64,000 nucleotides of DNA, taken from the NCBI GenBank assembly GCA_038816475.1, contig JAWBAI010000004.1, positions 45,534-109,533 on the forward strand, read 5' to 3'. Shown here one piece after another: positions 1,629-52,655 of the stretch (position 1 is its first letter; every line of letters begins with the position of its first letter). Below the pieces are notes generated by a model. That model saw only the letters and a program-made list of their open reading frames with translations. It did not search any database and had not been told where the DNA came from. The DNA is from Desulfurococcaceae archaeon (lineage in GTDB: Archaea > Thermoproteota > Thermoprotei_A > Sulfolobales > Desulfurococcaceae). The position numbers and the translations under genes were made by a program.

Positions 1629-3281
1629 TTAGCGCTTTTGCAGAGTTCTAAGTTTTAGTGGAGTATGAATGTTCAGCACCTTAGCATTCTTTAGGACAGC
1701 GTTAACGTATATAGCTTCACCTACGCTCAGCTTAGATAACACTGATGCCAGTTCCGGCTTTATTCCGAGTATTTTCCTCACTTTGTCCAGATACTCCTCG
1801 TTCTTAGACCCGAAGACTAGTATGTTATAGATGTTCTCCAGTATTTCGTTAGGGAAGTCTTCGGGACCTTGGGAGGATACCACTACGCCCAACTTTCTAC
1901 TCCTACCCTCACGGACGATCTCTAGTAGTGTCTTCAATTTGAGTATTCTCCATGCATCGTCTACTAGCAGGAGGAGACCCTTCTCGCTGCTTTCTCTAAG
2001 TAATAGATGCCTCACTATTCCGAGAAGTAGCGATGCATATGTGTTCTGGAAAGTTGTACCTCTACCTTCGAGGTTTATTAAAACGAGCGCGTTGCCTCGT
2101 GCTAGGTGCTTTTTAATCCACTCGTAATCCGTGTTTACTTCAATGAACTCTACGAATGGTATAATAACGGATGCGGAAGGATTCTTTGAAGCCTCCTTTG
2201 GGTCTCTCTCCACGACAACTAATGCTTTTAGAACAATCTCGGGACTTATTCCACCAGCGTGAGATAAGGATTCTACGACAACCCCTCTCCAGCTCATGTA
2301 CTCAATACCTGGAGGAGGATTTAAGATGTTTATTGGTGCATTATCCGGGGTGAGAACAGGTATAAGTTCATCCGAGATGTAATGACGAAGATCACCCTTA
2401 AAGTCTATGATAACAACATCTGAAAACCCCTCCGAGACAACCTGCTCTACTAGAGACGCTAGTAGTGTGGATTTTCCTCTCCCAGTTGGACCAATAACGG
2501 CTATGTGGTGATACAAGTACTTAAGTTGGAGAACAACGGGATGCATAGTGCTCTTCTCGAAACCTATCAGAATTCCGGGTTCATCGATCATGGGTTTGTC
2601 TAGTGTTACCGGTTGAAAATACGAAAGCCTATCTGCTTCGATGTGAATGCTTGATAACTCTGTTTTTGCATTTAAACCAAGAACACTGAGAATGAACGAA
2701 GCTATTTCACTATAACCCGCTCTTTCAAGTCGGAGTCCAAAACTGTTCTTAAAAACAGACGTAACAATCGACTCGTAGTAGTCAGCCATGCTCTTGGCTG
2801 TACTTTTATCTTTTGCATCAATTCTAAACACTACAGCAAGTGATATCTTTAGAAAAGGTTTGCCTTCAATTATAGCATGATACAAGGTCTTCAGCTTATC
2901 AAGCTTAACTCTAAGTTTAAGTTTTTCTGTTTCACTCTGAACGAGTTCGAGGTCAGCTTGCGTATTCAATATAGAGTTCTTGAGATTCTTTAGATATCTA
3001 TCCAGGTCGAACTCCTCCTTGTAAAGATACAAGTGAACACTCGATGGCAAGGACTTGAGCAGAGCTACGTATTCCTCAAATATGGTTTTACTGCGTTCAC
3101 TCAGAAGTTCTTCAACATCATACTCTGTATCTCTGCATATGAGTATTCTGCTTAAAACAACTCCGCTAGGGTATTGAATAATCAAGTCCGGGGGATCTAC
3201 CTCAACATTCCTTATTTTTAATTGTATAATTTTGAACCCTAACTCTGTTAAAAACTTAGCGAGGAGCTTCACGGTTATCAA
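1629..3281 (-). CDS. cedB: CedB, HerA/VirB4-like ATPase of the Ced DNA import system
   Basis: Walker A GPTGRGKS, IIDFKGD, Walker B LLVDDAW, REGRSRKLG..SSQ; last gene of the cedA1-cedA-cedA2 operon. Confidence 0.8.
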   Translation of the reverse strand: MITVKLLAKFLTELGFKIIQLKIRNVEVDPPDLIIQYPSGVVLSRILICRDTEYDVEELLSERSKTIFEEYVALLKSLPSSVHLYLYKEEFDLDRYLKNLKNSILNTQADLELVQSETEKLKLRVKLDKLKTLYHAIIEGKPFLKISLAVVFRIDAKDKSTAKSMADYYESIVTSVFKNSFGLRLERAGYSEIASFILSVLGLNAKTELSSIHIEADRLSYFQPVTLDKPMIDEPGILIGFEKSTMHPVVLQLKYLYHHIAVIGPTGRGKSTLLASLVEQVVSEGFSDVVIIDFKGDLRHYISDELIPVLTPDNAPINILNPPPGIEYMSWRGVVVESLSHAGGISPEIVLKALVVVERDPKEASKNPSASVIIPFVEFIEVNTDYEWIKKHLARGNALVLINLEGRGTTFQNTYASLLLGIVRHLLLRESSEKGLLLLVDDAWRILKLKTLLEIVREGRSRKLGVVVSSQGPEDFPNEILENIYNILVFGSKNEEYLDKVRKILGIKPELASVLSKLSVGEAIYVNAVLKNAKVLNIHTPLKLRTLQKR

Positions 3282-4823: not shown

Positions 4824-5090
4824 CTAAGGCATTTGAGGTGGTTGTGGCATTGGCAACTGAATTGACGATGTAATGTAAGATATGATCGCGAATACAGTCG
4901 TTCCCATGGCTAACCAGAAAGCAGCCCACAGGGCATCCTCGATCATCTTACTACCTGTCTTCTTAACTTTCACGAACGGTAATGGTAAACCTTTTATTAA
5001 CCAGCCGATAACCCAGGCGAGTAGAAAAACAAACCAAGCTATAATAACCACCATTGTTATTAAACCTTTGACAAACTCCACAACACTCAC
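4824..5090 (-). CDS. cedA1: CedA1 (VirB2-like pilin of the Ced system)
   Basis: AWVIGWLIKGLPLPFVKVKKTGSKMIEDALWAAFWLAMG, the CedA1 pattern; likely start GTG 5090 after GGGTGA RBS (track start 5105). Confidence 0.85.
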   Translation of the reverse strand: MSVVEFVKGLITMVVIIAWFVFLLAWVIGWLIKGLPLPFVKVKKTGSKMIEDALWAAFWLAMGTTVFAIISYITSSIQLPMPQPPQMP

Positions 5091-5116: not shown

Positions 5117-5143
5117 TTAACTAGAGGAGAGAGTGGCGAAAGT
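5117..5143 (-). promoter_or_regulatory. Putative DNA-damage-responsive promoter of the ced operon (ACTTTC-N6-CTCTCCT-N4-TTAA)
   Basis: Minus strand ACTTTC GCCACT CTCTCCT CTAG TTAA; contains the ANTTTC hexamer known from Sulfolobales UV-inducible promoters; same layout at 35631-35657. Confidence 0.55.
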
Positions 5144-5162
5144 TACACAGCGGTGAACTGCT

Positions 5163-7091
5163 ATGAGAAAATTGTGGCCCGAAACGGTGAAAATCTACTG
5201 GGATCCTTGGCGCAACATACCTGTAGTAAAGCCAAAGCAGGAAGAACTAGACCTCTTCTATCAACTTAGATTAAGTGAACCGGGGGATGCAAGACCTGCT
5301 TTTCCTGGGGACCTAGAGAAAATAAAAGAAGCTATTGCATACGAGTTTGGAAGTACTAAGCTGTTCGATCGCCTAGTGAAAGACCGCATAGTTCTGCTCA
5401 ATAAGGTTCCACACTGGGATCTTATGTACGAAGTTGTAGTTTCAGGAAACGTCGTAGGGCAATTCTACTACGATCCATACAAATGTAAGTGGAGATTCAG
5501 GTTAACTTACCAGGGCGCTTACACAGCTGTACAAAACAACCTTGTTGACACAATAAGAGGTGATCCCCCCTACTACGGCGGTAAAGTAGTAAGGGAGAAG
5601 TATAGCTCAAGTGCTAGAGAGCTCGTGCTGATCGATCATAAAGGTACTATAAGAGGAGTATGCGAAGTACTACCAACAGGCGAAGTGGTGATCGCAAAAA
5701 CTTTTCATGATAAAACAGCGCCCGTGGAAACCAGTGATAAACCAGCATCAGTGCAAGATTTAGTAAAATACAATGAAGAAGGTATCTTAACTCTAGAGGA
5801 GAAGTCAATCAACTACTTGAGAAGACTTTTCAACAGGTACTCTAGCCTTAGACCCGTAGTATCGTATTCCGGTGGAAAAGATAGTCTCGTGGCACTAGAT
5901 CTAGCTCATAGAGCATTCGGAGACCTTGACATTCTGTTCAATGATACCGGCTTGGAGATGCCTGAAACCCTCTGCAATGTCGAATACGTGGCAAACTACT
6001 ATGGTTATAAGTTATACGTAGCATCAGCCGGCGACATCTTCTGGAGAGCAGTAGATGTATTTGGTCCACCCGGTAAGGATTACCGGTGGTGTTGTAAGGT
6101 AACTAAACTAGTACCTATTGCAAAGTTAACTAAGGCTGTATGGCTCAACGGAGGTCTCAACATAGTTGGTCAAAGAGCTTACGAGTCGCTAGATAGAGCA
6201 TCAAGTCCTCTTGTCTGGAGGAACAAATGGATAAGGCACATGGTGAGTACAACGCCTATTCAGTACTGGAGTCAACTTTCAACGTGGATCTACATATTTA
6301 AGTACAATCTCCCGTATAACAAGCTCTATACATATGGATTCGACAGACTCGGATGTTTCATGTGCCCTTCATGCGCTTTAGCTGAATTTGAGGAAACCAA
6401 GAAGTTGTACCCAGATCTCTGGGGAAGATGGGAGCAAGTGCTGAGATCCTGGAAAAATAGAATGAATATGCCCGAGGAGTGGATAAAGCTTGGATTGTGG
6501 AGATGGCTTACGCCCGCTACTGCGAAGAAAAGGTTAACGCATCATGTTCCAGCATACTCAATGGACTGGAGAAAAGAGTACATGCAAAGACTCGAAAAGA
6601 GCAAGTCAAGCTTAACCCCCTTAGCTGTTGTGAAAGAAGGAGATAAGATCACAATACAGTTTAACAAGAACCTCCTACCAGAGGATCAAGTAGACGTATT
6701 TATCGCCAACATAGGAAGTTTAGGTTTCATCGTTGTTAGCAAAGAGCCACCTGTGTTCGAGAAGGGGAACGCTAGGTACATGATCAAGCACAACACCATT
6801 AATGTATCAAACTACAACGATGAACTGTTCGAAGACCTTGTCGACGTCCTGAAGGTCATTTATAGAATGCATAACTGCGTTTACTGTGGTAGTTGTGTAC
6901 TATGGACTAGAAAAGGTAGCGTTGCATTAACACCCAAGGGACCTATAGTAAAGAATGAATTGTCTGAAAGCGAGAAAAGAGCGTACATGGAAATATGCCC
7001 TATAAGCGATCAGCTCGTCGAGAAAGTAGTACTCTCTCTGCTACTTAATGATTACAGAGCGTTCAAGAGGAAGACGAGACGTAGGATTTAG
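5163..7091 (+). CDS. PAPS-reductase-family protein with PUA-like and C-terminal Fe-S domains
   Basis: PP-loop SYSGGKDS, RWCCKVTK, RLGCFMCP, C-terminal CVYCGSC..C cluster. Confidence 0.85.
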   Translation: MRKLWPETVKIYWDPWRNIPVVKPKQEELDLFYQLRLSEPGDARPAFPGDLEKIKEAIAYEFGSTKLFDRLVKDRIVLLNKVPHWDLMYEVVVSGNVVGQFYYDPYKCKWRFRLTYQGAYTAVQNNLVDTIRGDPPYYGGKVVREKYSSSARELVLIDHKGTIRGVCEVLPTGEVVIAKTFHDKTAPVETSDKPASVQDLVKYNEEGILTLEEKSINYLRRLFNRYSSLRPVVSYSGGKDSLVALDLAHRAFGDLDILFNDTGLEMPETLCNVEYVANYYGYKLYVASAGDIFWRAVDVFGPPGKDYRWCCKVTKLVPIAKLTKAVWLNGGLNIVGQRAYESLDRASSPLVWRNKWIRHMVSTTPIQYWSQLSTWIYIFKYNLPYNKLYTYGFDRLGCFMCPSCALAEFEETKKLYPDLWGRWEQVLRSWKNRMNMPEEWIKLGLWRWLTPATAKKRLTHHVPAYSMDWRKEYMQRLEKSKSSLTPLAVVKEGDKITIQFNKNLLPEDQVDVFIANIGSLGFIVVSKEPPVFEKGNARYMIKHNTINVSNYNDELFEDLVDVLKVIYRMHNCVYCGSCVLWTRKGSVALTPKGPIVKNELSESEKRAYMEICPISDQLVEKVVLSLLLNDYRAFKRKTRRRI

Positions 7092-26792: not shown

Positions 26793-28394
26793 CTACGTTT
26801 CAATTTCAACAGACTTTACAACCCGGAGTATGAGGTCTCGCGAAATACCTGTTTTCTTCGAGATAATTTCTACTAGGTTTTCGACAAGCTTATTTCTGAG
26901 CTCGGTGTTGATGTGTGGATTGCTACTACCTTGACCTAGTATAACTGTAAGGCTTCTGGCTACCTCCGGAATGTACTTTGCGATCATCTCCACTCTCTTC
27001 TTTGCTTCCTCTTCTCTGAGCTTTTTAGCCAAGTATAACCTTAATTTTCTCGCGACTTCCTGTATAGCGGTTCTTATCTCTCTATGTAGCTCAGGTATAT
27101 CAGCGATACTCTCCTTACCTACACCTTTGAACGGGACTTTGGTACTGCATATGTGAACCATGAGTACAATAGGAGCTGGGAATGTTACCAGGTAGTTTTG
27201 CCAGTCGACTTCGTCTTTAGCTACCTGCGTGATTACGTCAGATCCCTCGTCGTAGAGCAGAGGTATTTTGTTAGCGTACCTTAGTATTAGAGGGTACTCT
27301 TCGCTAATCGGTACTCCACCTCCGTAGGCTATTCCAGCTTCAACTATGAATGGGTGTCCACCATACGAGCTGGGTTTACGGGTAACAGCCTCCGCAAACT
27401 CAGCGTCGAAGAAAATCTTTAATCCTGTTTTTATCACTTCTTCCCCGAGTGGTGATAGCGCCTTTGGTGAAGGAGGTTTATACTTGTTATAGGATTTAAT
27501 AACATTGAGTAGTTTCAATAGTTCTTCCTGACTTAGCTCTTCTGGCTTTTTGCTGGGATCCACACCACTCAGTTCTACTAATCGGCTTGCGGTGATTTTA
27601 CCTACGCCCTGCAATCCGTTGATCAAGGCTTCATGTACGGTTGAGTAGCCTGATCTCATTATGCTAGCCAAGAGTTCGAGGTCTATACCCAGGGGGTGAG
27701 GCTTTGTTTCAATAGGTGGTCTTGGAACCTTATTTATCGTTCTCGGATAGTACAGCGTTTCGTCTTCAGGAGTTACAAGAACCATGCTGACATAGGGTAA
27801 TGCTATAGCTGTTCTTTGTACGTACTCTAAAATCCTCAGCTTAGCTCTGTTCCAATCACCTTCGATGGTTACAGAAACGATGGTTCCATGCCATTTCTTT
27901 GCTTTTCTCCAGCTACAGGCTTCGAGCACAACGGGCTCGTTCTTGCCTATATCTATTTTCAGTTTAAAGTAGTAAGTTCGTCTAAAGTCCCTCTTACTGG
28001 TTATCACCTCTACTGGTTGACCAGTAGTCATCTGAGCGTAGAGAACCACCATTTTAATGCCTAAACCAAACATCCCGCGCGTTTGCCTCATAACATATTT
28101 ACTACCGAACAGTACTCTACCAAAGGCGTTGGGTACAACATTTGGTGGAATACCAATACCATTGTCTTCAACGGTTATTCTATAGAAGTCATGGGATTCG
28201 TCAACCCTTGTGATATTGATTCTGACATCGGGGAGAATACCGTGAGCATCCGTAGCATCGAGAGCGTTTTCAACAAGTTCTCTTATCGTTTGATACATAG
28301 CTCTAGCCGGATTTGAAAAGCCGGCGATCTCTCTGTACTTGTAGAAGAACTCGGCTGGGCTTATTGCTTTATATGTCTCAGTTAAATCGCTCAT
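26793..28394 (-). CDS. top6B: DNA topoisomerase VI subunit B
   Basis: ISPAEFF, RELVENALDA, EDNGIGIP, QTRGMFGLG, RYANKIPLL, GKESIA. Confidence 0.97.
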   Translation of the reverse strand: MSDLTETYKAISPAEFFYKYREIAGFSNPARAMYQTIRELVENALDATDAHGILPDVRINITRVDESHDFYRITVEDNGIGIPPNVVPNAFGRVLFGSKYVMRQTRGMFGLGIKMVVLYAQMTTGQPVEVITSKRDFRRTYYFKLKIDIGKNEPVVLEACSWRKAKKWHGTIVSVTIEGDWNRAKLRILEYVQRTAIALPYVSMVLVTPEDETLYYPRTINKVPRPPIETKPHPLGIDLELLASIMRSGYSTVHEALINGLQGVGKITASRLVELSGVDPSKKPEELSQEELLKLLNVIKSYNKYKPPSPKALSPLGEEVIKTGLKIFFDAEFAEAVTRKPSSYGGHPFIVEAGIAYGGGVPISEEYPLILRYANKIPLLYDEGSDVITQVAKDEVDWQNYLVTFPAPIVLMVHICSTKVPFKGVGKESIADIPELHREIRTAIQEVARKLRLYLAKKLREEEAKKRVEMIAKYIPEVARSLTVILGQGSSNPHINTELRNKLVENLVEIISKKTGISRDLILRVVKSVEIET

Positions 28395-28536
28395 ATAAAC
28401 ACCATACTGAATAAACTATCTTCACGGTTAGGTTATAAGCAACTAGAATACTATCGGTTAACTCTACCTGGTACACCTTATAACTTTTACCCGTGAACCC
28501 GCTTCAAAAACACCCATTCTTTATTGGGATTCAACC

Positions 28537-28929
28537 ATGAAGGGGGTTTCGGGAATAGTTGCAACGGGTATCTTACTAGCGTTAACAATAGCTGGCGGCG
28601 TTCTCCTCTACTCGTACATTACCAGGTACTTAACAGTGTTCACTAACTCGGCGGATATTGTAATTACGAACGCGTACTACATTAAATCACTGAACAAACT
28701 CTACGTTACAGTAAGGAACGTAGGTTTAACTCCAACAACTGTGACAGGAGTTGAAGTCATACTAGTAAACAGAAGCATTTCAGCTAGTAATCAAACATAT
28801 GATATCCCAGCAGGTGGAGAACGAACCATAGAAGTAAACGTCGATCTCACAGAGACACCTCTCTACGTTGTTGTACGCTACGACAGAGACAGGCGAACGG
28901 ATCCATACACGGTAAGGGTATTTGGCTGA
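28537..28929 (+). CDS. Archaeal type IV pilin
   Basis: Class III signal peptide MKG|VSGIVATGILLALTIAGG followed by a small beta domain (VTVRNVG). Confidence 0.88.
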   Translation: MKGVSGIVATGILLALTIAGGVLLYSYITRYLTVFTNSADIVITNAYYIKSLNKLYVTVRNVGLTPTTVTGVEVILVNRSISASNQTYDIPAGGERTIEVNVDLTETPLYVVVRYDRDRRTDPYTVRVFG

Positions 28930-28947
28930 TAAACACAGGTGTAATCA

Positions 28948-30474
28948 ATGAAGATCTTCAAAAGATTTTTTTCTAGATCTTTTCTTTCTTCTTTTAAATT
29001 TAGCTTATCCATTCCTTATGCAAGCAAGAACATTGATCCCACAACCTCGAACATTTTGAATATGCTACTCGAAAACCACCTCAAAGGTTACAATATTGAG
29101 AACGTAAGCCTGGACAGCATTCTATATACCTACAGTTTGCATAACGTTGTTGAAATCTCTGTTGGAGAACTCGGTAATGAGGTTTTCTACGTTGTTAAGG
29201 AGCCGACGTACGATAACGAGGTTTTAGCTCAGGTTACACGAGAACTCTCTAGTAGAGTTTTCTCCGACGAACAGGTTATTTCTAGCATAAAATCTATGCT
29301 CGAGAAGAAAGAGCTCAAACCTACTGACTACATATACTTCAAAGTAACAAGCGGTCTTGGTCCTCTCACACCTCTTGTTCTAGACCCTCACGTCGAGGAT
29401 ATTCATTTGAGTAAGTCTTCTGGCAGAATTTACGTTGTTCACAATTCTTTTTCTTGGATTGGCTGGTTAAAGACTAACATAATAGTTAAACCAGAGCTAG
29501 TAGATCAGCTGGTTCTCGCTCTATCTAGAAGAGCTGGAAAACACGTATCTCTTGTTCAACCACTCGTCGAGGGATCACTAGAGGGTGTTCTGAGAGCTAG
29601 TTTGGTTTACGGTGGAAGCATAGCGCAACTTGGTAGTAGCATAGTACTAAGGAAGAAGAGTGGGGCAGTTCACACCATCACAAAACTGATTAACGAGGGA
29701 ACAATATCATCCGCGGTTGCAGCATACCTTTGGCTTGTGATAGAGAACAAGGGTTGGATCGTAATCGCAGGCCACGTCGGCTCTGGGAAAACCACCTTGC
29801 TTCAAGCACTTCTGAGCCTTATACCAGGGAACAAAAAGGTCATCACAATAGAGGATTCCCCTGAAGTCTACGTTCCAAGCGAATTATGGGACTCTTTCGT
29901 TGAAAACTACGAGGTTTTTTCGAGATTACCTCAGGTGGATGCTTTCGCGCTTCTCAAATTTGCCCTTCGAAGAAGAGCAGACTATATAGTTATTGGCGAA
30001 GTTAGAGGAGCTGAAGCGAGGTTATTGGTTCAAGCTTCGAGATTAGGTCATGGTGTACTGAATACCATACATGCTGATGGTGCACAGTCTGTTCTTGAAA
30101 GACTCATGGCATCTCCAATATCAATTCCAAAAAATCTTCTTGGTAACATATGGACGATTGTGCTAACAGAACTTGTTGGTAAAACAAGAAAAGTGGCAAG
30201 TATTACAGAAGTAAGCAACGACGTAGAGTTGGTCGAAATATGCAGTTCCTTGGTACCATGTAGCTTAGAGAATATTGCTCAGAGGTCTGTTAGGCTCGCT
30301 AAGATCTACAATAGTGAAGAACTGTATCAGGAACTTGCTCGTAGAGCGATCTTCCTAGAAAAACTTGTCTCCGAGGGTGTTTTTGCACCAGAAGCACTAG
30401 CACGTAGGCTCTTCGAGTTTTATGCGGAAAAACATCTGGAGGTCGAAGAGCTTGTTGCTAAGAGTACTCGGTAA
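28948..30474 (+). CDS. Type IV pilus assembly ATPase (VirB11/TadA/UpsE-like)
   Basis: LDPHVEDI, GHVGSGKTT, ITIEDSPE, IVIGEVRGAE, GHGVLNTIHA. Confidence 0.93.
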   Translation: MKIFKRFFSRSFLSSFKFSLSIPYASKNIDPTTSNILNMLLENHLKGYNIENVSLDSILYTYSLHNVVEISVGELGNEVFYVVKEPTYDNEVLAQVTRELSSRVFSDEQVISSIKSMLEKKELKPTDYIYFKVTSGLGPLTPLVLDPHVEDIHLSKSSGRIYVVHNSFSWIGWLKTNIIVKPELVDQLVLALSRRAGKHVSLVQPLVEGSLEGVLRASLVYGGSIAQLGSSIVLRKKSGAVHTITKLINEGTISSAVAAYLWLVIENKGWIVIAGHVGSGKTTLLQALLSLIPGNKKVITIEDSPEVYVPSELWDSFVENYEVFSRLPQVDAFALLKFALRRRADYIVIGEVRGAEARLLVQASRLGHGVLNTIHADGAQSVLERLMASPISIPKNLLGNIWTIVLTELVGKTRKVASITEVSNDVELVEICSSLVPCSLENIAQRSVRLAKIYNSEELYQELARRAIFLEKLVSEGVFAPEALARRLFEFYAEKHLEVEELVAKSTR

Positions 30475-31726
30475 GAGGAGATTTCTACATAAATGCTACG
30501 ATGATATGTTCCTCGACTTTCTCGTGCAACTAGCAAGCTTTGAATCTAGTGGTTTAAAGATCTATCACTTGTTCGAAAGCATTAGAAGAGGTGATATCGA
30601 GCTTGGTGAGTGCTACAGCGCTCTCTCGAACCAGTATACTGTACTAGAGAGTTCTCTAGGTGCACCTCACCTGGCTTTGAGAAAGATTGCTGAATCTGTA
30701 CCTTTCTTAGAGCTCTCTAAATTTCTGAGAGATTACAGTACCGTGCTGGTTACTAGTGGTAATACGAAGTACTTCGTTGAATCTATACTTAAGCAGGAGT
30801 TTGCTAGGTTTAGGGCAAAGGTTAATGAGCATCAGAGAGCGCTCGATACGTTGTACGAAGCGTATCTAGTGGGGGTCCTAGTGCTAATGTTCCTCATGGT
30901 GCTACCCATATGGGGTTTGCTCCCGCTTCTTGGACTACTCGTAATCTACGCGCTGGGCGTTACTGGGTACTTCTTCGCGTATAGAATATGCGTAAAGCTC
31001 CATTACACCCTTCCCGGCTACGTAGTATTCAGCGACATTCTCTTCTCAACGCTAGCAGTTGTTCTAGCCTTGTCTTTCGAGGCGATGCTCCTACTACCTG
31101 CACTATTACTTGTTCTACACGTGACTACGAGAAAACACGCTGCTGTGAACAATATTCTCGAGCAGGAATCGTTCCGCGTAATCTACGATACTTACTCGCA
31201 GGTGTTAATGGGTAGACCAGTGAGTACAGCATTGTTGGAGTCCCTAGGTTCCTCCAACTCAGCTCCGTACAGGTTACTCTGGTTTAGTTTAATGCTAGGC
31301 GTTAACCCAAAGAAAGTTTTAAAGATTATTAAGCTTCCAAAACTAGCTTACAAGATACTTCTCTTCTCGCTTGCTACTATGCTTTACAGCTCAGCTGAAG
31401 GTAAGCACCTTGTTCACGCTGTTGACTACTTGGACGAAATCGCATCAGTGAGAAAACAGGTACGCGAGAAGATAAAGCAGTATGTTCTGTACTCCTTTGT
31501 AGTAATTGTTCTTGTGGTAGCAGCCTACATTATGCTATTGAGAATACCACTAGCATCACCCTTAGACAAGCACGCGTTTTCAGCTTACAGTAGTATAGGT
31601 TTTCTAATGGTAATGCAGCCAGCGGTCCTAATCAGAGACGGAGGATTCACTTCTTCGCGAAGCGCGATAGCAGTAGTATTCGCAGCGTTTGCTACGTATT
31701 TGGTGATGATGAACTTAACTATTTAA
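30422..31726 (+). CDS. Type IV pilus membrane platform protein (TadC/FlaJ/UpsF-like)
   Basis: Multi-TM; LASFESSG, duplicated T2SSF-like cytoplasmic segments; directly downstream of the ATPase. Confidence 0.8.
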   Translation: MRKNIWRSKSLLLRVLGKRRFLHKCYDDMFLDFLVQLASFESSGLKIYHLFESIRRGDIELGECYSALSNQYTVLESSLGAPHLALRKIAESVPFLELSKFLRDYSTVLVTSGNTKYFVESILKQEFARFRAKVNEHQRALDTLYEAYLVGVLVLMFLMVLPIWGLLPLLGLLVIYALGVTGYFFAYRICVKLHYTLPGYVVFSDILFSTLAVVLALSFEAMLLLPALLLVLHVTTRKHAAVNNILEQESFRVIYDTYSQVLMGRPVSTALLESLGSSNSAPYRLLWFSLMLGVNPKKVLKIIKLPKLAYKILLFSLATMLYSSAEGKHLVHAVDYLDEIASVRKQVREKIKQYVLYSFVVIVLVVAAYIMLLRIPLASPLDKHAFSAYSSIGFLMVMQPAVLIRDGGFTSSRSAIAVVFAAFATYLVMMNLTI

Positions 31727-32708
31727 GCTCCTCAACTAGAATCTTTGCAATTGTTCTCGCGGCATTAGGGTAAATCCTAGTGGGTTTGTGAGCAAGCTCC
31801 AGAGCTCTCTTTAGCTCCTCTACGTCCGCTCTCTCGATGAAAACTGCTTCTAGCTTCTCAGCGTAGATCTTTACATCATTTTTTGGTGCACCAAGAACAA
31901 CCCTGGGATTCCACACCACTATGACTGGTTTCCCGTAGGCCAAGCTAGCGGTAGCAGCGGTAACTCCTTGCTGGGTAACAACGATGCTTGCATCCGCGAT
32001 CCACCTATGTATATCACTAGTATACCTGAAAACTTTCCACGAAGGGTTTCTCCTGAGGTAGGGCTCTGGATCCACATCTCCTGTTTGCATAACAACATTG
32101 TCTAGTTTTAGTCTCTCAATGGAATCGAACAACTCCTTATACCCAATTGTTCCAGTCGTTACAAGCACATAGCCTTCATCCCTGGGTTCGTAAACGGGAG
32201 GCTCGTAAACTGGCCCAACCACAATCCCCTTTGGAAACATTCTCAGCTGCTCTTCCCAGTGCAGAAACACCTTTGCTCCAAAAAACTCGAGGAACTTAAC
32301 AGCTCTTGAAGGCTTAGAAAAGTGCTCTATCGCTTCAATAGTGTACACTCTTGCTCTCCTGAGAATCATGGCTATTAGAGACGGTGGAATGGAGAAATTG
32401 GATCCACCAGCGAATACAGCTTTAATGTGCTCATTCAATAGTAACTGAGTAGATTGGAAAAACGCCTTAATCCATCTTCCAAGTCCTTTTACTAAGGGCT
32501 CTCCGGGTCTTCTAGGTAGCACCTGGTAGTAAACTCTACCCAAGTTCTTGAACTTCTCAGCTAGGAAAGAGTACTCCTCGGCTACAAGGAAAATACTGTT
32601 CCTAAACCCGGCTTTAGCAAGCTCTATCGCTACAGCATAAACGTAGCCCGAGTGACCTCCGTAGCCTGCAACTAGCAGTATACTGTTTTCCTTCAAGGCG
32701 GCATTCAT
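31719..32708 (-). CDS. Alg14/Alg13-like fused GlcNAc transferase (MurG/Agl24-like, N-glycosylation)
   Basis: GYGGHSG, IEAIE..PSRA, LHWEEQ, VTTGTIG, QTG, VVTQQG. Confidence 0.75.
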   Translation of the reverse strand: MNAALKENSILLVAGYGGHSGYVYAVAIELAKAGFRNSIFLVAEEYSFLAEKFKNLGRVYYQVLPRRPGEPLVKGLGRWIKAFFQSTQLLLNEHIKAVFAGGSNFSIPPSLIAMILRRARVYTIEAIEHFSKPSRAVKFLEFFGAKVFLHWEEQLRMFPKGIVVGPVYEPPVYEPRDEGYVLVTTGTIGYKELFDSIERLKLDNVVMQTGDVDPEPYLRRNPSWKVFRYTSDIHRWIADASIVVTQQGVTAATASLAYGKPVIVVWNPRVVLGAPKNDVKIYAEKLEAVFIERADVEELKRALELAHKPTRIYPNAARTIAKILVEELK

Positions 32709-32785
32709 CTCGACTAAGCGTTCACTATGAATATCAGTGGAATACAGCTCTTATAACAATCGTTCTTAACGAAAATTACCGTATG

Positions 32786-32860
32786 CGGGCCCGCCGGGAT
32801 TTGAACCCGGGTCCTCCGGCTCCGCAGGCCGGCGCCCTCTCCAGGCTAGGCCACGGGCCC
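32786..32860 (-). tRNA. tRNA-Arg(GCG)
   Basis: GGGCCCGTGGCCTAGCCTGGAGAGGGCG-CCGGC-CT-GCG-GA-GCCGG-AGGACCCGGGTTCAAATCCCGG-CGGGCCC-G; no intron. Confidence 0.95.
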
Positions 32861-32886
32861 CTAGTGGTTTTAGGTATTCTTGGTTT

Positions 32887-33570
32887 TTAGTACTTTCGTT
32901 TAAGCATCTTTGAGTAGGAGTCTGCTTCCTGAAGCGGTATTGGTAGTTTTGCTTCTTTGGTAAGCAGGTTTTTAACTATGTTAACAGCGTCCTCCAGATT
33001 CACTTTGTAGCCTATGCTTACGTAGAGTTCAGTGCTTCCGTGTTTCAGTACTTCTCCAACTATTAAGCCGTGCGCTCTAATAAGTCTTCTCCCGCAGCTC
33101 TCTACTATTTCACCGTACAGCTTCTTTTTAGCTACACCTATGCTGGGCTTCTCGAGAACTAGCCCAATGTGAGTTGCTATACCGAAGGCTCTGGGATGCG
33201 CCAAGCCATGTCCATCTACGAGTATAACATCGGGTTTCACCGTGAGCTTTGAGTACGCTCTCATGTACCCTGGAACTTCTCTGAACGCTAGTAACCCCGG
33301 TATGTATGGAACACGAGCTTCAACTATACTGAACGCCTTCTCCACGATGTTTCGTGAACTCGTATCGTAGATTACTATTGCAGCGTACTGTTTGCTGTCC
33401 TTATAGGCCGAGTCAAAGCCAGCTATAAACCTTATCTTGCTCAGATCAAGGTGCGTGCCTTCGCGAATACTTAGGAGAGCTTTCTCGGAGAGAACTTTCT
33501 GTAGCATCATAGCTCTCTCAACGCTGAAACTCACAGTTAAACACCGGTGCAGTTGTTTCGCATCAATCAT
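32887..33570 (-). CDS. nfi: Endonuclease V
   Basis: AGFDSAY, PYIPGLLAFRE, VDGHGLAHPRAFGIATH, SIGVAKK, LYVSIG; real start probably ~20 codons in. Confidence 0.95.
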   Translation of the reverse strand: MIDAKQLHRCLTVSFSVERAMMLQKVLSEKALLSIREGTHLDLSKIRFIAGFDSAYKDSKQYAAIVIYDTSSRNIVEKAFSIVEARVPYIPGLLAFREVPGYMRAYSKLTVKPDVILVDGHGLAHPRAFGIATHIGLVLEKPSIGVAKKKLYGEIVESCGRRLIRAHGLIVGEVLKHGSTELYVSIGYKVNLEDAVNIVKNLLTKEAKLPIPLQEADSYSKMLKRKY

Positions 33571-33635
33571 GCTGTTTTTAATGGAAAGTATTATTAAGTA
33601 TAATTCATGTGCTTTAGGTATTTGTTAACTCTGGT

Positions 33636-34199
33636 GTGAACTTGAAGTACAAGAGATCAAAGCTCGCTGATATATTTAACGTGCTTCACAGGTGGAAGAT
33701 AAACGGAGTTGTAATAGGTGACACATCCGTTCAGCTGCACTTGAACTACCCAGAACTCGACGGAGACATTGATGTTTTTACACTAGATTTTAGCCCCCTA
33801 TCGGAGAGGGAGAAACTAGAAGAAATTGCAGCGGAGCAAGGATGGGAGTTGACAACATCAGAAATAGGTTTACCGGCGCTAGTGGTCCCTTTGGAGGAAG
33901 GCTACGTGCTTATTGAGTTCTACGAGAACTACATGGACATAGATATACCGATGGAGCTTCTCGAGGACTCAGTCGAGTACAGAATAGACTCAACGAGAAT
34001 AAAGTCCATTAGACCGGAGTACTATCTCGTTTTAAAAGCAAGGCAAGGTACAGACCTTGACAAGCTCGAGAAATACCTAGCAGAGCTTAAACGCAGAGGC
34101 TTCAACCTGAAGCTAGTTGAATACGCAGTATCACTGTACCCACCTGAGGAGCAAGAACTTATATACGAGAGGTTGAGAAGTGTTAAGCTAGAAGTTTAG
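33636..34199 (+). CDS. Nucleotidyltransferase-fold protein
   Basis: GVVIGD..DGDIDVF motif, YYLVLKAR. Confidence 0.75.
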   Translation: MNLKYKRSKLADIFNVLHRWKINGVVIGDTSVQLHLNYPELDGDIDVFTLDFSPLSEREKLEEIAAEQGWELTTSEIGLPALVVPLEEGYVLIEFYENYMDIDIPMELLEDSVEYRIDSTRIKSIRPEYYLVLKARQGTDLDKLEKYLAELKRRGFNLKLVEYAVSLYPPEEQELIYERLRSVKLEV

Positions 34200-34235
34200 C
34201 TTTAAAATCCCTATTACGGGTATATGAGGTAGTAG

Positions 34236-34421
34236 GTGCTTACTATGCCAATAAACGACCCCGAGTTGCTGAAAATAGTGCATCTGCGTGTTTTGAACAA
34301 GTACGTGTGCAGAAAGTGTGGTGCATTAAACCCGCCGGGAGCAGAGAAGTGCAGAAGATGCAAGTCCAAGGGTACACTGAGGCCAAAGAAGCTGATGAAG
34401 GCAGGTCCTAAATCTAAGTAA
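34236..34421 (+). CDS. rpl40e: 50S ribosomal protein L40e
   Basis: [26 protein letters not shown]. Confidence 0.96.
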
Positions 34422-34495
34422 TTACAATGTTAACAGTTGTTAGTGGAATACCACGTGGTGTAAGGTTGTGAGCTTTTAGCTATACCGATGAACAG

Positions 34496-35596
34496 TTGGA
34501 AAAGCTAAGAGTCGACAAGCAAAAGCTTAGAGAAATAATAAGAGAGCTTTCTACTTGGAGAGCTCATGCAACAATACTACTAAGTTTGTACATTCCACCG
34601 GGAAGACCCATAAGCGATGTTCTCGCTCTCCTAAGACAGGAGATCTCCGTAGCCGAGAACATCAAACTCAAACGTACAAGGAACGCTGTTGAGTGGGCGC
34701 TAAACATAGCCTATGATAGGTTAAGCAAGATACCCAAAGCACCAGATAAGGGATTAGTACTGTTTGCAGGTATGAATCCCGACACAGGTGAGTCAACTGT
34801 AGTGATGCTTATACCTCCTGAGCCCGTACCCGTATTCTTCTACAGAACGGACAAGGTATTTCACGTAGAGTTCCTGGAGGAAATGGTCTCGGAGAGCAAC
34901 ATAATTGGTATTCTCCTGATCGAGAGAGATGCTGCAACTATAGGTCTTCTCAAGGGTAATAGATTGGAGGTTGTTGATGAACTGGAAGGATATGTTCCCG
35001 GTAAACACCACAAAGGTGGTCAAAGCCAGAGGAGATTTGACAGGATCATAGAGCAAATGGTAGAAGAATTCTACAAGGATGTTGGCGAAAGAGCAAACCA
35101 GGTGTTTCTACCATTACTGGAGCAGGGTAAACTGAAAGCAATAATTATCGGTGGACCCGCGTATGCAAAGTACGATTTCCTACAGGGCAACTACTTGGAC
35201 TATAGGTTAAAGCAAATAGTACTACCAGAGCTCATAGACGTAGCCTACCAAGGTGAAGCTGGACTAAGAGAGCTAATCATGAAAGCGGGAGATCTACTAA
35301 AAGACCAAGAGTACGCTGAATCTTTGAAGCACCTGGAAGAGTTCAAGTACCACCTGGCAAAGGATGATGGACTTATTGTTTACGGCGAAGAGGAGGTTAA
35401 ACTAGCATTACAGCAGGGATTATTAAAAGTTTTACTTGTAAGCGATTCACGAAACGATGTTACATCATGGCTTGAAGAAGCTTCATCAAAGAACGTGAAG
35501 GTTGTTGTAATAAGCAAGGATCTTCCAGAGGGTGAGTGGTTTTCCAGAACATTCGGTGGAATAGCTGGTATTTTAAGGTTTCGAACGTACGAGTAG
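34496..35596 (+). CDS. prf1: Peptide chain release factor aRF1
   Basis: LLSLYIPP, NIK, KHHKGGQSQRRF, FGGIAGILRF. Confidence 0.97.
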   Translation: MEKLRVDKQKLREIIRELSTWRAHATILLSLYIPPGRPISDVLALLRQEISVAENIKLKRTRNAVEWALNIAYDRLSKIPKAPDKGLVLFAGMNPDTGESTVVMLIPPEPVPVFFYRTDKVFHVEFLEEMVSESNIIGILLIERDAATIGLLKGNRLEVVDELEGYVPGKHHKGGQSQRRFDRIIEQMVEEFYKDVGERANQVFLPLLEQGKLKAIIIGGPAYAKYDFLQGNYLDYRLKQIVLPELIDVAYQGEAGLRELIMKAGDLLKDQEYAESLKHLEEFKYHLAKDDGLIVYGEEEVKLALQQGLLKVLLVSDSRNDVTSWLEEASSKNVKVVVISKDLPEGEWFSRTFGGIAGILRFRTYE

Positions 35597-35630
35597 CAGA
35601 GCTCGAGATCTCACGGATTCAAAAAGGAAT

Positions 35631-35657
35631 AGTTTCATCAAGCTCTCCTTGACTTAA
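35631..35657 (+). promoter_or_regulatory. Putative DNA-damage-responsive promoter (AGTTTC-N6-CTCTCCT-N4-TTAA)
   Basis: AGTTTC ATCAAG CTCTCCT TGAC TTAA, 53 nt upstream of ATG 35684; same layout as upstream of cedA1. Confidence 0.55.
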
Positions 35658-35683
35658 CCTATACCATCTTTAAACGGGGTTCC

Positions 35684-36850
35684 ATGAAGGGAGTAGAATC
35701 TATAGTAGGAGCTTACTTAGCTGTTATAATAGTCATAGGAATAATGTTCGCATTTCACACGTGGATATCCTCTTACACTAAGAGTATCAATGATCAAGTA
35801 AACAACGTTATCAGCGCTGTTCAGGTTGTTTCATACCCTCCGGTTATATCGATAAAGTACGCTAATGAAACTCACTTTGTACTAGCAGTAACACCCTATG
35901 CACCTATTAGAATAAAGGATCTTGTACTAAGATCGCCTGATAACGAGCTTGTGTTTCACCTTGCACTAAATGAGCTTGTACTTTCCACAACGGAGTTTCC
36001 TGTTGAAAGACCAAGTAAGCCTGTTCTTGTATACTTCGTTACGGAGGGCGGCCTCGTGTTCTACTACGTTCCACGCTTGGATCCAGGCTTGCAGAACGCT
36101 CCTGACAATATCAAGAACAAGGTGTACGTTGATAACGAGCTTCTCGACTATGTAGCCAAAGGGTTAATAGATAGCGGTAGCTGGGTTCTCATGGAGGCGC
36201 AAGGCTACAAGCTAGCCTGGGGTTCTACGAGGCTTGATCTGGTAAACAGTACTCTTCTCCGTGGACCAGTGGTATGTAGCCTAGTTGTCCATATACCCTG
36301 TAATGTTAACATGACATCCTTAGAGAACTCTGTGTTAACGAACTGGTTTAATAGTACTAGCAGCATACCCGGGTTCAGGCATAGCGGTGGTTTCTTGGAA
36401 TTTGTTCATTACTCAGGAAATTACACGCAAATTTACAGGATGATTAAGTTTACCGGAGGAGACGAGATTACGTTTATAGTCAATATCACTCTACGTGCAG
36501 TAGGTGCATACACGGGTGTAAGCCACGCGGTGTACTTCATTCCAGTAGTCTATCTCTACGATGCTGGGTTTAACCCTGTATTCCCAGTAACTCTCTACCA
36601 GCTTAGAATATACTACAACACGGAACTACCGGGTGAAGCGATGAGACCATGGCATGCCAGGATTCCATTGACGGATAACATCTTGTTCTGGAACAGCACA
36701 AGCTACTACGTAGGCGTATTCGAAGTAAAGTTGAATCCGCGAGATTACGGACTTAACGAAGGGTACGTACTCGTCGGTGTTGAAGCTGTCGTAGTCATAG
36801 GAATAGAGAGTTTCAACCTCAGAGTATTAATAGACGTAAAAGCTCGATGA
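35684..36850 (+). CDS. Large type IV pilin-like surface protein (minor pilin/adhesin candidate)
   Basis: Class III signal peptide MKG|VESIVGAYLAVIIVIGIM; 388 aa, beta-rich with several N-x-S/T sequons. Confidence 0.75.
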   Translation: MKGVESIVGAYLAVIIVIGIMFAFHTWISSYTKSINDQVNNVISAVQVVSYPPVISIKYANETHFVLAVTPYAPIRIKDLVLRSPDNELVFHLALNELVLSTTEFPVERPSKPVLVYFVTEGGLVFYYVPRLDPGLQNAPDNIKNKVYVDNELLDYVAKGLIDSGSWVLMEAQGYKLAWGSTRLDLVNSTLLRGPVVCSLVVHIPCNVNMTSLENSVLTNWFNSTSSIPGFRHSGGFLEFVHYSGNYTQIYRMIKFTGGDEITFIVNITLRAVGAYTGVSHAVYFIPVVYLYDAGFNPVFPVTLYQLRIYYNTELPGEAMRPWHARIPLTDNILFWNSTSYYVGVFEVKLNPRDYGLNEGYVLVGVEAVVVIGIESFNLRVLIDVKAR

Positions 36851-37015
36851 TGTTTTAATTGTACTACAAAGGGAACCATTCGAGTAGGATAAACTGGGAA
36901 GAATGAAGTCGAAAGCACACAGTTCACTTCGCTTGTGTACAGAGTTCGTGGCTAGTTGTAAATGATAAAATAATGCTGATCCATCCGTAGAACTACAGGA
37001 TGAGATGATATGACT

Positions 37016-38020
37016 CTACCCCGTGATCATTGCCAGAACAGCTGCCAACGTGGCTGGGAGTAAGCTGTACTTGAATAACTGAATAAGTGCTTGCTCTATT
37101 CTGTAACGCCCCATGATGTTCTTTATCAACACTACTAGCATTAATAAAGCTACGTACTTGATAACCAGTAGTATAGCACCATGTGGAGACATGTGCGCAA
37201 ACGGTAAAGGACCGCCGAGCAGAACGTAAACTCCGATGATAAGGGATATTGTCAAATCCACGTCATGCAGTAATCTTGCTAGTGCTAGTAGTGGACCTGA
37301 GAACTCTGTTTCAAAGCCAGCTATTATCTCTTGTTCCGCCTCGGGGATGTTGAACGGTGGGTACATAGCTTTAGCTTGAACACTTACAATAAACGAGATC
37401 AAGCATAAAACCATTACAACAGCTGTTCTGGGATCAGCCCACAGCTCGTAGACCCTTGTATAGGCTTCACCAATACTCATGAAGCCACCTGGATCTACTC
37501 CGTAGCGAGTTGCCAGGTAAACTGGTATAACAATACTTGCGAAGTAAGCTGGTTCAGCTATGGTTGCTATTGACAGAAGTCTCGATACTCCAATAGTGGT
37601 GTAAGGTCCTGGCATAGATAGAGATGCGAGTATGAGCGCGAGTAATGGTATAACACTCGTCATGTAGAAGAATAATAGAACATCAAAGCTCGAACTTATG
37701 CTGAAGGGACTTAGAGGTAAGAAAATGACAGCTCCGAGGGCGAACGATAATCCTACGATCAACGAGATCTCGGCTGCTTTTACAAGCGAGAACCGCGTTT
37801 TAACCAGCTCCTTGTACCTTAAAAGCTTCCAGAAGTCGAAGAATGGCTGAAGAACGCCAAATGGACCTACGTAGCTAGGCCCCATTCTTCTCTGGTACTT
37901 TGCACTTAGTTTTCTAACGAGGTATTGTGTGAAAAAGGCTAGTGAAACCAGGAATATTAAACCTGGGAATACGAGAACGCTGAGCAAAGCGTAAAGAACA
38001 ATCTGGTACACTTTGATCAC
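37016..38020 (-). CDS. mbhM: Membrane-bound hydrogenase subunit MbhM (NuoH-like)
   Basis: YQRRMGP..G.LQPFFDF.KL, PFNIPEAEQEIIAGFETEFSG; start GTG 38020 overlapping the upstream stop. Confidence 0.9.
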   Translation of the reverse strand: MIKVYQIVLYALLSVLVFPGLIFLVSLAFFTQYLVRKLSAKYQRRMGPSYVGPFGVLQPFFDFWKLLRYKELVKTRFSLVKAAEISLIVGLSFALGAVIFLPLSPFSISSSFDVLLFFYMTSVIPLLALILASLSMPGPYTTIGVSRLLSIATIAEPAYFASIVIPVYLATRYGVDPGGFMSIGEAYTRVYELWADPRTAVVMVLCLISFIVSVQAKAMYPPFNIPEAEQEIIAGFETEFSGPLLALARLLHDVDLTISLIIGVYVLLGGPLPFAHMSPHGAILLVIKYVALLMLVVLIKNIMGRYRIEQALIQLFKYSLLPATLAAVLAMITG

Positions 38021-45180: not shown

Positions 45181-45756
45181 TTAAAACCTCCTTGGAATCT
45201 TCCTAGTTGCATAGTTGATTTTTATGTAGTTGAACTTTCTGTACAATGCTGTAATAAGCATTGAAACTGTAAAAGCAGTTAGCGAGGTTATGATCGGTGC
45301 AAGTCTTATACCCCACGGTGTGTAGTTTAGTACTAATCCCACGAGAGGTACAGTAGCTAGCGATAATCCAATGGATAGAGCTGTTCTCTCCAATGGTGAT
45401 AGGTCCTCTTCGCGAGGATACAAGGCTTCAACAAGAGAGTACCCGGGTAAGAAGAGAACGTAGATCGTTCCAAGCACGTACCTAGCTGGGATCAGAGCTG
45501 GGACCTTCTCGGTTAAAAACACTACTAGTAGAGTTAGTGACGTCAGTGCGAGGGCTGTCCAAAACCAGAGTGTATATTCTAGTCTAAACGCGTAGGATAC
45601 CAGCGTTAGGGGTGGATCCGGGTCCTCGATCCTCAGCTTCTTATCTTTAACGCTTTTCCACACTTCATAAAGCACCTTGTACTTGTTAACCTTTCCACCG
45701 GCTCTTCTTCTGACGTAATCCTCCAGGGTTACAGGTTCTCTGTTCAAGTCGATCAC
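45181..45756 (-). CDS. DUF1616-like membrane protein (TM part)
   Basis: LFLPGYSLVEALYP..LSPLERTALSIGLSLA..GLVLNYTPWGI. Confidence 0.8.
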   Translation of the reverse strand: MIDLNREPVTLEDYVRRRAGGKVNKYKVLYEVWKSVKDKKLRIEDPDPPLTLVSYAFRLEYTLWFWTALALTSLTLLVVFLTEKVPALIPARYVLGTIYVLFLPGYSLVEALYPREEDLSPLERTALSIGLSLATVPLVGLVLNYTPWGIRLAPIITSLTAFTVSMLITALYRKFNYIKINYATRKIPRRF

Positions 45757-51933: not shown

Positions 51934-52655
51934 GCTAAAGTCACCACTATCGGTTTTAATAGCAGATCCAAAGTCAGAACAGTACCTGCCAGCCTCTTGT
52001 GTCTATTGCTGAATGCGATATGATTTCTTGCGAAGTGCAGTACGAGGAACACGAGTAGAGCTTTCAACTCAACATCAACCACTGGTGATATGTATAGCAG
52101 CGCGAAGAACAGTAAAGAGGAAGCGTACTGGTAAACTTTACTTCTCGTCGCGGAAGCTACTATTGTAGACACCAGCACGTCAACTACGGTTAAGCTTAGA
52201 AGCCTCAACGTGAAGTCTACACCAAGGTACACACCTATGATTGTTGAAGCTAGAACAATAAATGGGATATGCGGCTGAAAAATCCTCTCTAGACTACTCA
52301 CATGGTAGTGGTAGTAGTACATGTACGTGAAAAGAATAGTTAGAATGATCAGTGAATCAACCGTGTAGTTAACCATGTTAGCTGGAATATTAAGAAAGTG
52401 TAGCAATGTGTGGAGAAACACTGTTGCTGTGTAAAAGGCGATCACGAGATAGTTCATCACTAATCTTCTTAGTAAAACGGTAGCGTTGAACACTATGAAC
52501 AGAGCTATAAGGAACAATTGAGGAGACACTAATAGCGTCTTGTTAAGGTAGAAGAGTATGAGGATAAGCAATGGGAGAATTAAAGATAAGGAGGTTCTAA
52601 GGTGCTCTGCGAACTCTCTGAACCAGTCGGTATAGCTACTTCGGAACAGGAACAC
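51930..52655 (-). CDS. Hypothetical polytopic membrane protein
   Basis: About 8 hydrophobic segments; overlaps moxR. Confidence 0.7.
   Translation of the reverse strand: MFLFRSSYTDWFREFAEHLRTSLSLILPLLILILFYLNKTLLVSPQLFLIALFIVFNATVLLRRLVMNYLVIAFYTATVFLHTLLHFLNIPANMVNYTVDSLIILTILFTYMYYYHYHVSSLERIFQPHIPFIVLASTIIGVYLGVDFTLRLLSLTVVDVLVSTIVASATRSKVYQYASSLLFFALLYISPVVDVELKALLVFLVLHFARNHIAFSNRHKRLAGTVLTLDLLLKPIVVTLA

Follow-up and report, generated by a model that had tools for sequence, protein, structure and literature searches.

A conserved promoter element resembling the Sulfolobus DNA-damage-responsive element upstream of ced, tfb3-like, and pilin-like genes in Desulfurococcaceae

Nearly all that is known of the archaeal DNA-damage response comes from Sulfolobaceae, where the DNA-damage-responsive element (DDRE) 5'-ANTTTC-3' is bound by Orc1-2 in Saccharolobus islandicus and is required in ultraviolet (UV)-inducible promoters of Sulfolobus acidocaldarius (PMC6061795, PMC5817253). 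Sun et al. derived a 20-bp consensus, AATAGTTTCRGWDTACTCWS, from 21 S. islandicus promoters strongly induced by 4-nitroquinoline 1-oxide (NQO), and its ANTTTC core was footprinted by Orc1-2 and needed for induction (PMC6061795). In S. acidocaldarius, the hexamer goes back to the work of Le et al. on ups promoters, in which the TFB-recognition elements (BREs) are weak (PMC5817253). Here we analyze a stretch of 64,000 nucleotides (the window; positions 45,534 to 109,533 of contig JAWBAI010000004.1, assembly GCA_038816475.1) from a Desulfurococcaceae metagenome-assembled genome of 1,153,660 bp, 92% complete, in which the promoters of the DNA-import gene cedA1 and of a gene for a 388-aa pilin-like protein share an extended ANTTTC motif. 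With a probability of about 0.8, the shared sequence is the DDRE of Sulfolobus and Saccharolobus, kept in Desulfurococcaceae as the two-part Orc1-2 operator of a damage regulon. No report of the element outside Sulfolobaceae was found in open-access papers and preprints.

A second described system bears on the pilin-like gene. UpsC (saci_1302 / SiRe_1957) is a 49-kDa minor pilin of the UV-inducible Ups pili; its gene, induced by UV and by TFB3, lies apart from the ups operon, and aggregation depends on it. The papers describing it place the ups genes and UpsC only in Sulfolobales and ask what replaces them elsewhere (PMC11823120, PMC11868833).

The two sites of the window read ACTTTC GCCACT CTCTCCT CTAG TTAA on the minus strand (5143..5117) and AGTTTC ATCAAG CTCTCCT TGAC TTAA on the plus strand (35631..35657), exactly as given in an earlier note on this DNA, whose counts of 16 shared positions in the three blocks and of 53 nt between each site and the probable start codon (GTG 5090 and ATG 35684) are also borne out; over the whole 27-mers, 19 of 27 positions are identical. 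The decisive evidence is the conservation in relatives, together with a matrix built independently of this genome. The training set comprised 70 orthologous upstream regions (15 of the 388-aa gene, 27 of cedA1, and 28 of the tfb3-like gene), excluding this genome and orthologues of more than 90% identity. An expectation-maximization de novo search of these regions yielded AATACTTTCGC..AACCCTCC, i.e., AAT-A[C/G]TTTC-R[C/G]..AA-CYCYC; motif discovery on orthologous promoters, a check proposed in the same note, thus recovers the same two-part motif from non-self sequences. Information peaks at the hexamer and at three C positions that equal it (columns 15, 17, and 19, with 1.24, 1.62, and 1.13 bits). 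The spacing between hexamer and C-rich block is 6 nt in 40 of the 70 regions, any other spacing being found in at most 7, and the reverse-complement control gives 1.

In seven gene families checked, sites recur in most orthologues. For the families of the two window sites compared above, both of which belong to the training set, scores of at least 15 bits are reached in 20 of 27 non-self cedA1 upstream regions and in 14 of 15 of those of the 388-aa gene, where the first A of the hexamer lies at -51..-58. Upstream regions of the 388-aa gene orthologues keep A.TTT[CT]-N6-CTCTCCT followed by an AT-rich box, and the cedA1 promoters of the genus and family have the same motif with a block ranging from CTCTCCT to CCCCCCT. 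Four further loci played no part in the training. Sites of 19.9–25.1 bits at -52..-60 precede 12 of 14 orthologues (at most 65% identical) of a gene for a 248-aa protein, the two misses being the most distant ones (31 and 28% identity). Those of a type IV pilin gene have the site at about -86..-95 (14 of 26 non-self orthologues at or above 15 bits, 8 of 26 at or above 18 bits), those of a short family-B DNA polymerase gene at -51..-59 (7 of 12 at or above 15 bits). At a locus encoding a small Zn-ribbon protein, 10 of 21 sequences reach at least 15 bits at -184..-196, four have a weaker site at the same place, and seven have none.

A scan of the whole genome with the matrix gave five matches of at least 18 bits, against 1.6 in shuffled sequences, and four of at least 20 bits, against 0.4. 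All five matches at or above 18 bits are intergenic and lie on the strand of the next gene; matches below about 15 bits occur at chance level. When 1154 crudely called genes were ranked by the best matrix score within 130 nt upstream, the first place was taken by the tfb3-like gene (25.2 bits), followed by the 248-aa gene (23.0 bits), the 388-aa gene (21.1 bits), cedA1 (18.2 bits), a 126-aa gene (16.9 bits), the type IV pilin gene of the genome's only type IV pilus operon (16.6 bits), and the short family-B polymerase gene (14.2 bits), after which the ranking falls to 12.9 bits. The motif is conserved, its internal spacing is fixed, and it is restricted to these promoters.

The de novo consensus aligns with the published 20-bp S. 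islandicus element, the Orc1-2 site (PMC6061795). Features in common with the DDRE are the ANTTTC hexamer (ACTTTC at 5143-5138 on the minus strand, AGTTTC at 35631-35636 on the plus strand), the AAT prefix, a purine after the hexamer, the 6-nt spacer, and a CTC or CCC block, as well as the orientation relative to the gene and the kinds of target, namely, cedA1, tfb3, and pilins. The host family, here Desulfurococcaceae, is different, and the genus of this genome has a longer and less variable C-rich block (CTCTCCT). Moreover, relative to the transcription start the hexamer lies at -44..-39 according to Le et al., who found no motif at the S. acidocaldarius ced loci (PMC5817253), whereas cedA1 has one here. 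Judged by these comparisons, the sequence is a real and conserved regulatory element, and Desulfurococcaceae would be a new family-level occurrence of the known Sulfolobus and Saccharolobus DDRE.

The earlier note had taken CTCTCCT for an extra element of this lineage. This does not agree with the S. islandicus consensus, in which a 6-nt spacer is likewise followed by a terminal CTCWS (PMC6061795), nor with the upsA promoters of Sulfolobaceae. The UpsA model scores above its cut-off only in one family (f13), which was for this reason taken as Sulfolobaceae, and it does so in 13 of 18 sampled genomes of this family (1.8–3.0 Mb). At all 13 of these upsA loci, the matrix trained on Desulfurococcaceae detects a single site of 15.4–22.9 bits with the form AATACTTTCG..T.TCCCTCA (ANTTTC-N6-CCCTC), after which TTTAAA-type boxes follow at 3–5 nt. 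Hence the element has long contained the C-rich block, which was not added in the Desulfurococcaceae lineage.

The same note had further proposed that CTCTCCT is a specialized BRE, perhaps read by an alternative TFB, and separate from ANTTTC as the activator site. The position of the block gives this proposal some ground, as in the cedA1, 388-aa, 248-aa, and polymerase promoters it ends at a median of 0–1.5 nt (0 in cedA1) before the first AT-rich 8-mer, i.e., where a BRE would be. Seven pyrimidines out of seven are found at that position in only 3 of 200 ordinary promoters of the genome, which are A-enriched at -7..-4, and the genome encodes two full-length TFBs with PF00382 (cyclin repeats) besides the TFB3-like protein. 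However, the block keeps its 6 nt to ANTTTC, while its median distance to the AT-rich box grows to 10 nt in pilin promoters and 23 nt in tfb3-like promoters, so that it lacks the constant position relative to this box that a BRE would require. A similar displacement is known in S. islandicus, where the tfb3 site also lies further upstream than those of pilus and ced genes, the footprint fragments covering -47..-99 for Ptfb3 and -17..-69 for PupsE (PMC6061795). The block also accompanies ANTTTC in the published consensus and in Sulfolobaceae upsA promoters, and the TFB3-like protein, with 214 aa and PF08271 (the TFIIB Zn ribbon) as its only domain, lacks the DNA-reading cyclin repeats of TFIIB; by domains, orthology by tree aside, it fits the definition of TFB3. 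A dedicated BRE is, in our estimate, improbable. Since the 6 nt to ANTTTC are kept and the distance to the AT-rich box varies, we regard the block as part of the regulator's site. In promoters in which it directly adjoins the TATA-like box, it occupies the BRE position with a sequence atypical there, which is compatible with a role as a deliberately poor BRE; this overlap probably also makes the promoter activation-dependent.

We propose that the DDRE is a single two-part operator of about 17–20 bp, AAT-A[C/G]TTTC-R-N5-CYCYC, in which the C-rich block would form the second half, one helical turn from the hexamer. Orc1/Cdc6-type proteins contact DNA through a winged helix and an initiator-specific motif (ISM), as seen with Orc1-1 on origin recognition box (ORB) elements (2QBY, 2V1U). 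Because of these two modes of contact, and because the hexamer and the block are about 11–12 bp apart from centre to centre, the block is proposed as the contact of the Orc1-2 ISM, with the winged helix reading ANTTTC; the fixed C-rich block thereby becomes a concrete candidate for the ISM contact on a promoter. As at ORB elements, two protein modules would fit a two-part site about one turn long, but the DDRE is asymmetric, has no dyad, and occurs in promoters rather than origins. By analogy with S. islandicus, an Orc1-2-type Orc1/Cdc6 paralogue would bind the element after DNA damage and, together with the truncated TFB3-like factor, would switch on promoters that have a poor BRE position. 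Binding by Orc1-2, induction by damage, and the ISM contact on the block are what we infer from these likenesses.

A suitable paralogue is available. Two Orc1/Cdc6 genes are present in the genome, the product of the first being closest to S. solfataricus Cdc6-1 and A. pernix ORC1 (415 and 412 bits) and that of the second to P. aerophilum Cdc6 and A. pernix ORC2 (212 and 164 bits); ORC2 (1W5S) is treated as an Orc1-2 homologue (PMC12490963). The C-terminal domain of the second protein contains R-K-H-T and R-G-R, which by eye, unaligned, resemble the RRxT and RxR DNA-binding features described in the same paper (PMC12490963). The ISM of Orc1-2 is needed for specific binding, its place of contact on the DNA is described as unknown, and there is no structure of an Orc1-2–DNA complex (PMC9738581).

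The predicted regulon would include the ced DNA-import operon, the single type IV pilus operon, the large UpsC-like minor pilin, and the tfb3-like gene; the short family-B polymerase, its divergent 248-aa neighbour, and a transcript upstream of the small Zn-ribbon gene would also belong to it. The additional targets expected in the earlier note were found in part, as the tfb3-like gene, the ced operon, and pilus genes carry a site, and the Orc1-2-like gene does not. Of its claim of a conserved damage regulon, the part that stands, by sequence comparison only, is that the ANTTTC element and a damage-type gene set are kept in Desulfurococcaceae.

The element might nonetheless be real and conserved and yet answer in Desulfurococcaceae to another regulator or to another signal, such as starvation or surface attachment. 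The Orc1-2-like gene without a DDRE would fit such a state of affairs, as would the fact that the cell's single type IV pilus, which carries the element, must also serve everyday adhesion. On the other hand, the gene set (ced, tfb3-like, pilins, a large minor pilin, and a short family-B polymerase) parallels the damage and TFB3 regulon of S. islandicus and S. acidocaldarius (PMC6061795, PMC11823120, PMC11868833), and Sulfolobaceae have the same motif at their upsA promoters. A change of regulator or signal seems quite unlikely to us on balance.

Several observations weigh against the identification of the element as the operator of an Orc1-2 damage regulon. The best score upstream of the Orc1-2-like gene is -8.4 bits (200 nt upstream), whereas S. 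islandicus orc1-2 carries a DDRE, and a CedD-like gene likewise has no upstream DDRE (best -5.4 bits). The site of the pilin operon reads ACTATC instead of ANTTTC and reaches only 16.5 bits, and the 14.2 bits of the polymerase site correspond to the genome-wide chance level (21 matches of at least 14 bits vs. 16.4 in shuffles). Three of the seven families trained the matrix, so their counts are not independent, and related genomes are themselves non-independent samples. The promoter geometry is also discordant: a conserved GGTG-type Shine-Dalgarno sequence at about -12..-5 implies a leader, and the AT-rich box at -34..-27 implies a start near -4. Finally, three hot-spring metatranscriptome runs of raw reads gave 0, 0, and 1 reads on positions 27000-37500 of the window, and in one run of assembled contigs a relative about 93–99% identical covers the pilin gene (word depth 24 and 15) and the 388-aa gene (7–8.5). 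This sole RNA library with related sequence consists of contigs of a relative about 95% identical and shows no start, strand, or induction.

As for a chance resemblance of two unrelated promoters, it is refuted by the orthologue conservation, the de novo motif, and the genome scan: both sites are kept in orthologues with only 23–37% protein identity, and the matrix made without this genome recovers both among its top five matches. The raw likeness of the pair, 19 of 27 letters, is indeed not rare here, as at least 19 letters in common with the cedA1 27-mer are found at five other places of the genome, against a mean of 3.3 (range 1–5) in 10 shuffles. Two of these five places, upstream of the 388-aa gene and of the 248-aa gene, are intergenic, on the strand of the gene, and exactly 53 nt before its start. 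What distinguishes the pair is position, block structure, and conservation in relatives. A genome-wide search for A.TTTC-N6-CTCTCCT-N4-TTAA gave two matches, the cedA1 and 388-aa-gene sites, with about 0.001 expected from base composition, but this test is post hoc, the pattern having been derived from the same two sites. Relaxed regular expressions (a pyrimidine run, and YCTCYT with 5–7 nt spacing) gave 65 and 45 matches and are of no use for defining the regulon, since the matches are mostly antisense within genes.

The 388-aa protein resembles UpsC in several respects. Like UpsC, it combines a putatively pilin-type N-terminus with an unusually large C-terminal part (388 aa vs. 130 aa in the neighbouring pilin), has several N-x-S/T sequons, is encoded outside the pilus operon, and has an ANTTTC promoter, the saci_1302 promoter being among those that defined the motif (PMC5817253). 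In sequence, however, no relationship is detectable: a family profile of 15 orthologues matches in none of 26 sampled Sulfolobaceae (f13) genomes, a comparison in which no UpsC sequence was directly included, and neither Pfam nor NCBIfam contains a matching family. Orthologues are present in 16 of 16 genomes of the genus (23–37% identity), full-length relatives being confined to the genus and one sister genus; the first ~160 residues recur in proteins of 580–715 aa from other Desulfurococcaceae and one further family. The N-terminus is conserved as M-[KRH]-G-VESI[IV]GAYLA followed by a long helix. It resembles MKGVSGIVATG of the neighbouring pilin, with which the N-terminal 30 residues align weakly (hhalign E 0.0073), and the genome has one A24 prepilin peptidase. 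The AlphaFold model (predicted local distance difference test score, pLDDT, 77) has an N-terminal helix at residues 3-50 followed by beta-sandwich domains. Foldseek against the PDB returned only weak beta-sandwich or carbohydrate-binding-module matches with a template modelling score of about 0.2, a lead at most, and ESM Atlas only the protein's own cluster of hypothetical proteins. In two relatives (contig C15 of G003 and contig C24 of G001), the tfb3-like gene and the 388-aa orthologue are 4–8 kb apart on the same contig; here they are on different contigs.

As in the ups operon (upsX-E-F-A-B), genes for a type IV pilin, an assembly ATPase, and a platform protein stand behind a DDRE, but the order here is pilin–ATPase–platform and no upsX is seen. 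The pilin scores 30.6 bits on the UpsA model, far from its cut-off of 130, and 133 of the 151 genomes of the order contain a similar match below threshold. With one PF00437 match in a 92%-complete genome, the organism apparently has one type IV pilus system and lacks an archaellum ATPase; since the ATPase of this operon is the genome's only one for a type IV pilus, that pilus probably does not serve the damage response alone. By analogy and by their predicted shared regulation, the 388-aa gene and the pilus operon together look like a functional counterpart of UpsC and Ups. They suggest a possible substitute for Ups pili in crenarchaea whose genomes encode Ced and lack ups genes, a substitute that the Ups and Ced papers of 2025 had asked for.

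Outside Sulfolobaceae, in a second family, this operator is found at a coherent set of genes, which suggests that the circuit is older and wider than described. A bolder reading, which we hold to be rather doubtful, would place the origin of the regulon before Sulfolobaceae and Desulfurococcaceae diverged; its components would be the Orc1-2 operator, TFB3, Ced, a type IV pilus under damage control that has a large pilin of the tip type, and a family-B polymerase that is inducible. On this reading, one Orc1-2 protomer would contact both halves of the operator, ANTTTC through its winged helix and the CYCYC block through its ISM, and damage-triggered aggregation and DNA exchange in Desulfurococcaceae would proceed through a pilus analogous, but not recognizably homologous, to Ups. 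If so, damage-induced aggregation in Desulfurococcaceae would contradict the current statement that confines Ups-type aggregation to Sulfolobales. The predicted regulon also provides a candidate list of damage genes for organisms known mostly from metagenome bins.

The pairing of the 248-aa gene with the divergent polymerase gene, and both of their sites, recur in relatives. The 248-aa protein has no sequence match in Pfam, NCBIfam, or the PDB, and its AlphaFold model has a pLDDT of 40.5. Its N-terminal 97 residues align with the RadA of the genome at an hhalign probability of 36% (E 3.9e-4), without a Walker A motif, and the protein aligns with a RadA paralogue at 5%. This divergent pair is reminiscent of bacteria, where an error-prone polymerase is paired with a degenerate RecA-like protein.

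The distance of the site at the Zn-ribbon locus (-184..-196) is constant across the genus; a long conserved leader, a small RNA, or a small open reading frame (ORF) missed by annotation may lie behind this. Rfam has no match between this top-scoring DDRE and the Zn-ribbon ORF.

Table 1. Sites and genes discussed in the text. Positions without a contig refer to the window; C-numbered contigs are those of the genome.
Feature	Position	Strand	Remarks
DDRE of the ced operon	5126..5146	minus	GTA-ACTTTC-GCCACT-CTCTCC; 18.2 bits with the matrix from other genomes
Start of AT-rich (TATA-like) stretch	5117..5124	minus	CTAGTTAA; directly after C-rich block; putative TATA role
DDRE of the 388-aa pilin-like gene	35628..35648	plus	AAT-AGTTTC-ATCAAG-CTCTCC; 21.1 bits
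DDRE variant before the pilus operon	28447..28467	plus	AAT-ACTATC-GGTTAA-CTCTAC; 16.5 bits; A 87 nt before pilin ATG
cedB-like HerA/VirB4-type ATPase	1629..3281	minus	Pfam DUF87/HerA; best NCBIfam match CedB, 70.6 bits, below cut-off
Membrane ORF in cedA2 position, 57 aa	3256..3429	minus	Assigned by position and size; no family match
cedA-like gene, 464 aa	3426..4820	minus	Best NCBIfam match Ced_CedA, 122.5 bits, below cut-off 330; residues 11-193
cedA1	4824..5090	minus	NCBIfam Ced_CedA1, 110.3 bits, above equivalog cut-off 100; start GTG 5090
Divergent gene, 642 aa, phosphoadenosine phosphosulfate (PAPS)-reductase domain	5163..7091	plus	PRK13795-type; 72 nt between its start codon and that of cedA1
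Type IV pilin, 130 aa	28537..28929	plus	N-terminus MKGVSGIVATGILLALTIAGG; NCBIfam UpsA, below cut-off; arch_flag_Nterm 16.9 bits
Type IV pilus assembly ATPase	28948..30474	plus	Only PF00437 match in the genome
Probable platform protein, 434 aa	30422..31726	plus	Pfam T2SSF 22.6 bits, just below cut-off 25.2, and operon position
tRNA-Arg (gcg)	32785-32860	minus	Between a glycosyltransferase gene and endonuclease V
Large pilin-like protein (P0001), 388 aa	35684..36850	plus	Leader MKG-VESIVGAYLAVIIVIG resembles a class III signal peptide
248-aa gene	C13:209-955	minus	Damage element at -53; diverges from the polymerase gene
Short family-B DNA polymerase, 634 aa	C13:1419-3323	plus	Best NCBIfam match NF004416, 246 bits; damage element at -53
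Orc1-2-like (second Orc1/Cdc6) gene	C1:113842-115104
Top-scoring site of the genome	C6:60302	minus	26.0 bits; 191 nt before an 85-aa Zn-ribbon ORF; AT-rich box directly after
Candidate site before the 126-aa ORF (52492-52872, no known family)	C5:52408	plus	AGGTTC replaces ANTTTC; 16.9 bits; 84 nt before the ORF

In the ced operon, the longest ORF of cedA1 starts at TTG 5105, the CedA1 profile begins at its residue 8, just after GTG 5090, and GGTGAT stands at -10..-5 of this GTG, which is likely the start of the gene. The cedA-like gene is present in 37 of 41 related genomes; its product, at 464 aa, is longer than the CedA profile with its 259 positions, and since only residues 11-193 match, the membrane part is followed by about 270 further residues of no known family. 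The divergence of the 642-aa gene from cedA1 is kept in the genus, where the alignment contains a conserved reverse-strand coding sequence, and binding at the ced DDRE, which is 20 nt from the ATG of this gene, might affect it as well. Upstream of the pilin gene, TTATAA is found at 28478-28483, 10 nt after the C-rich block of the site. A spike of metatranscriptome depth at 32616-32966 corresponds to the tRNA-Arg gene.

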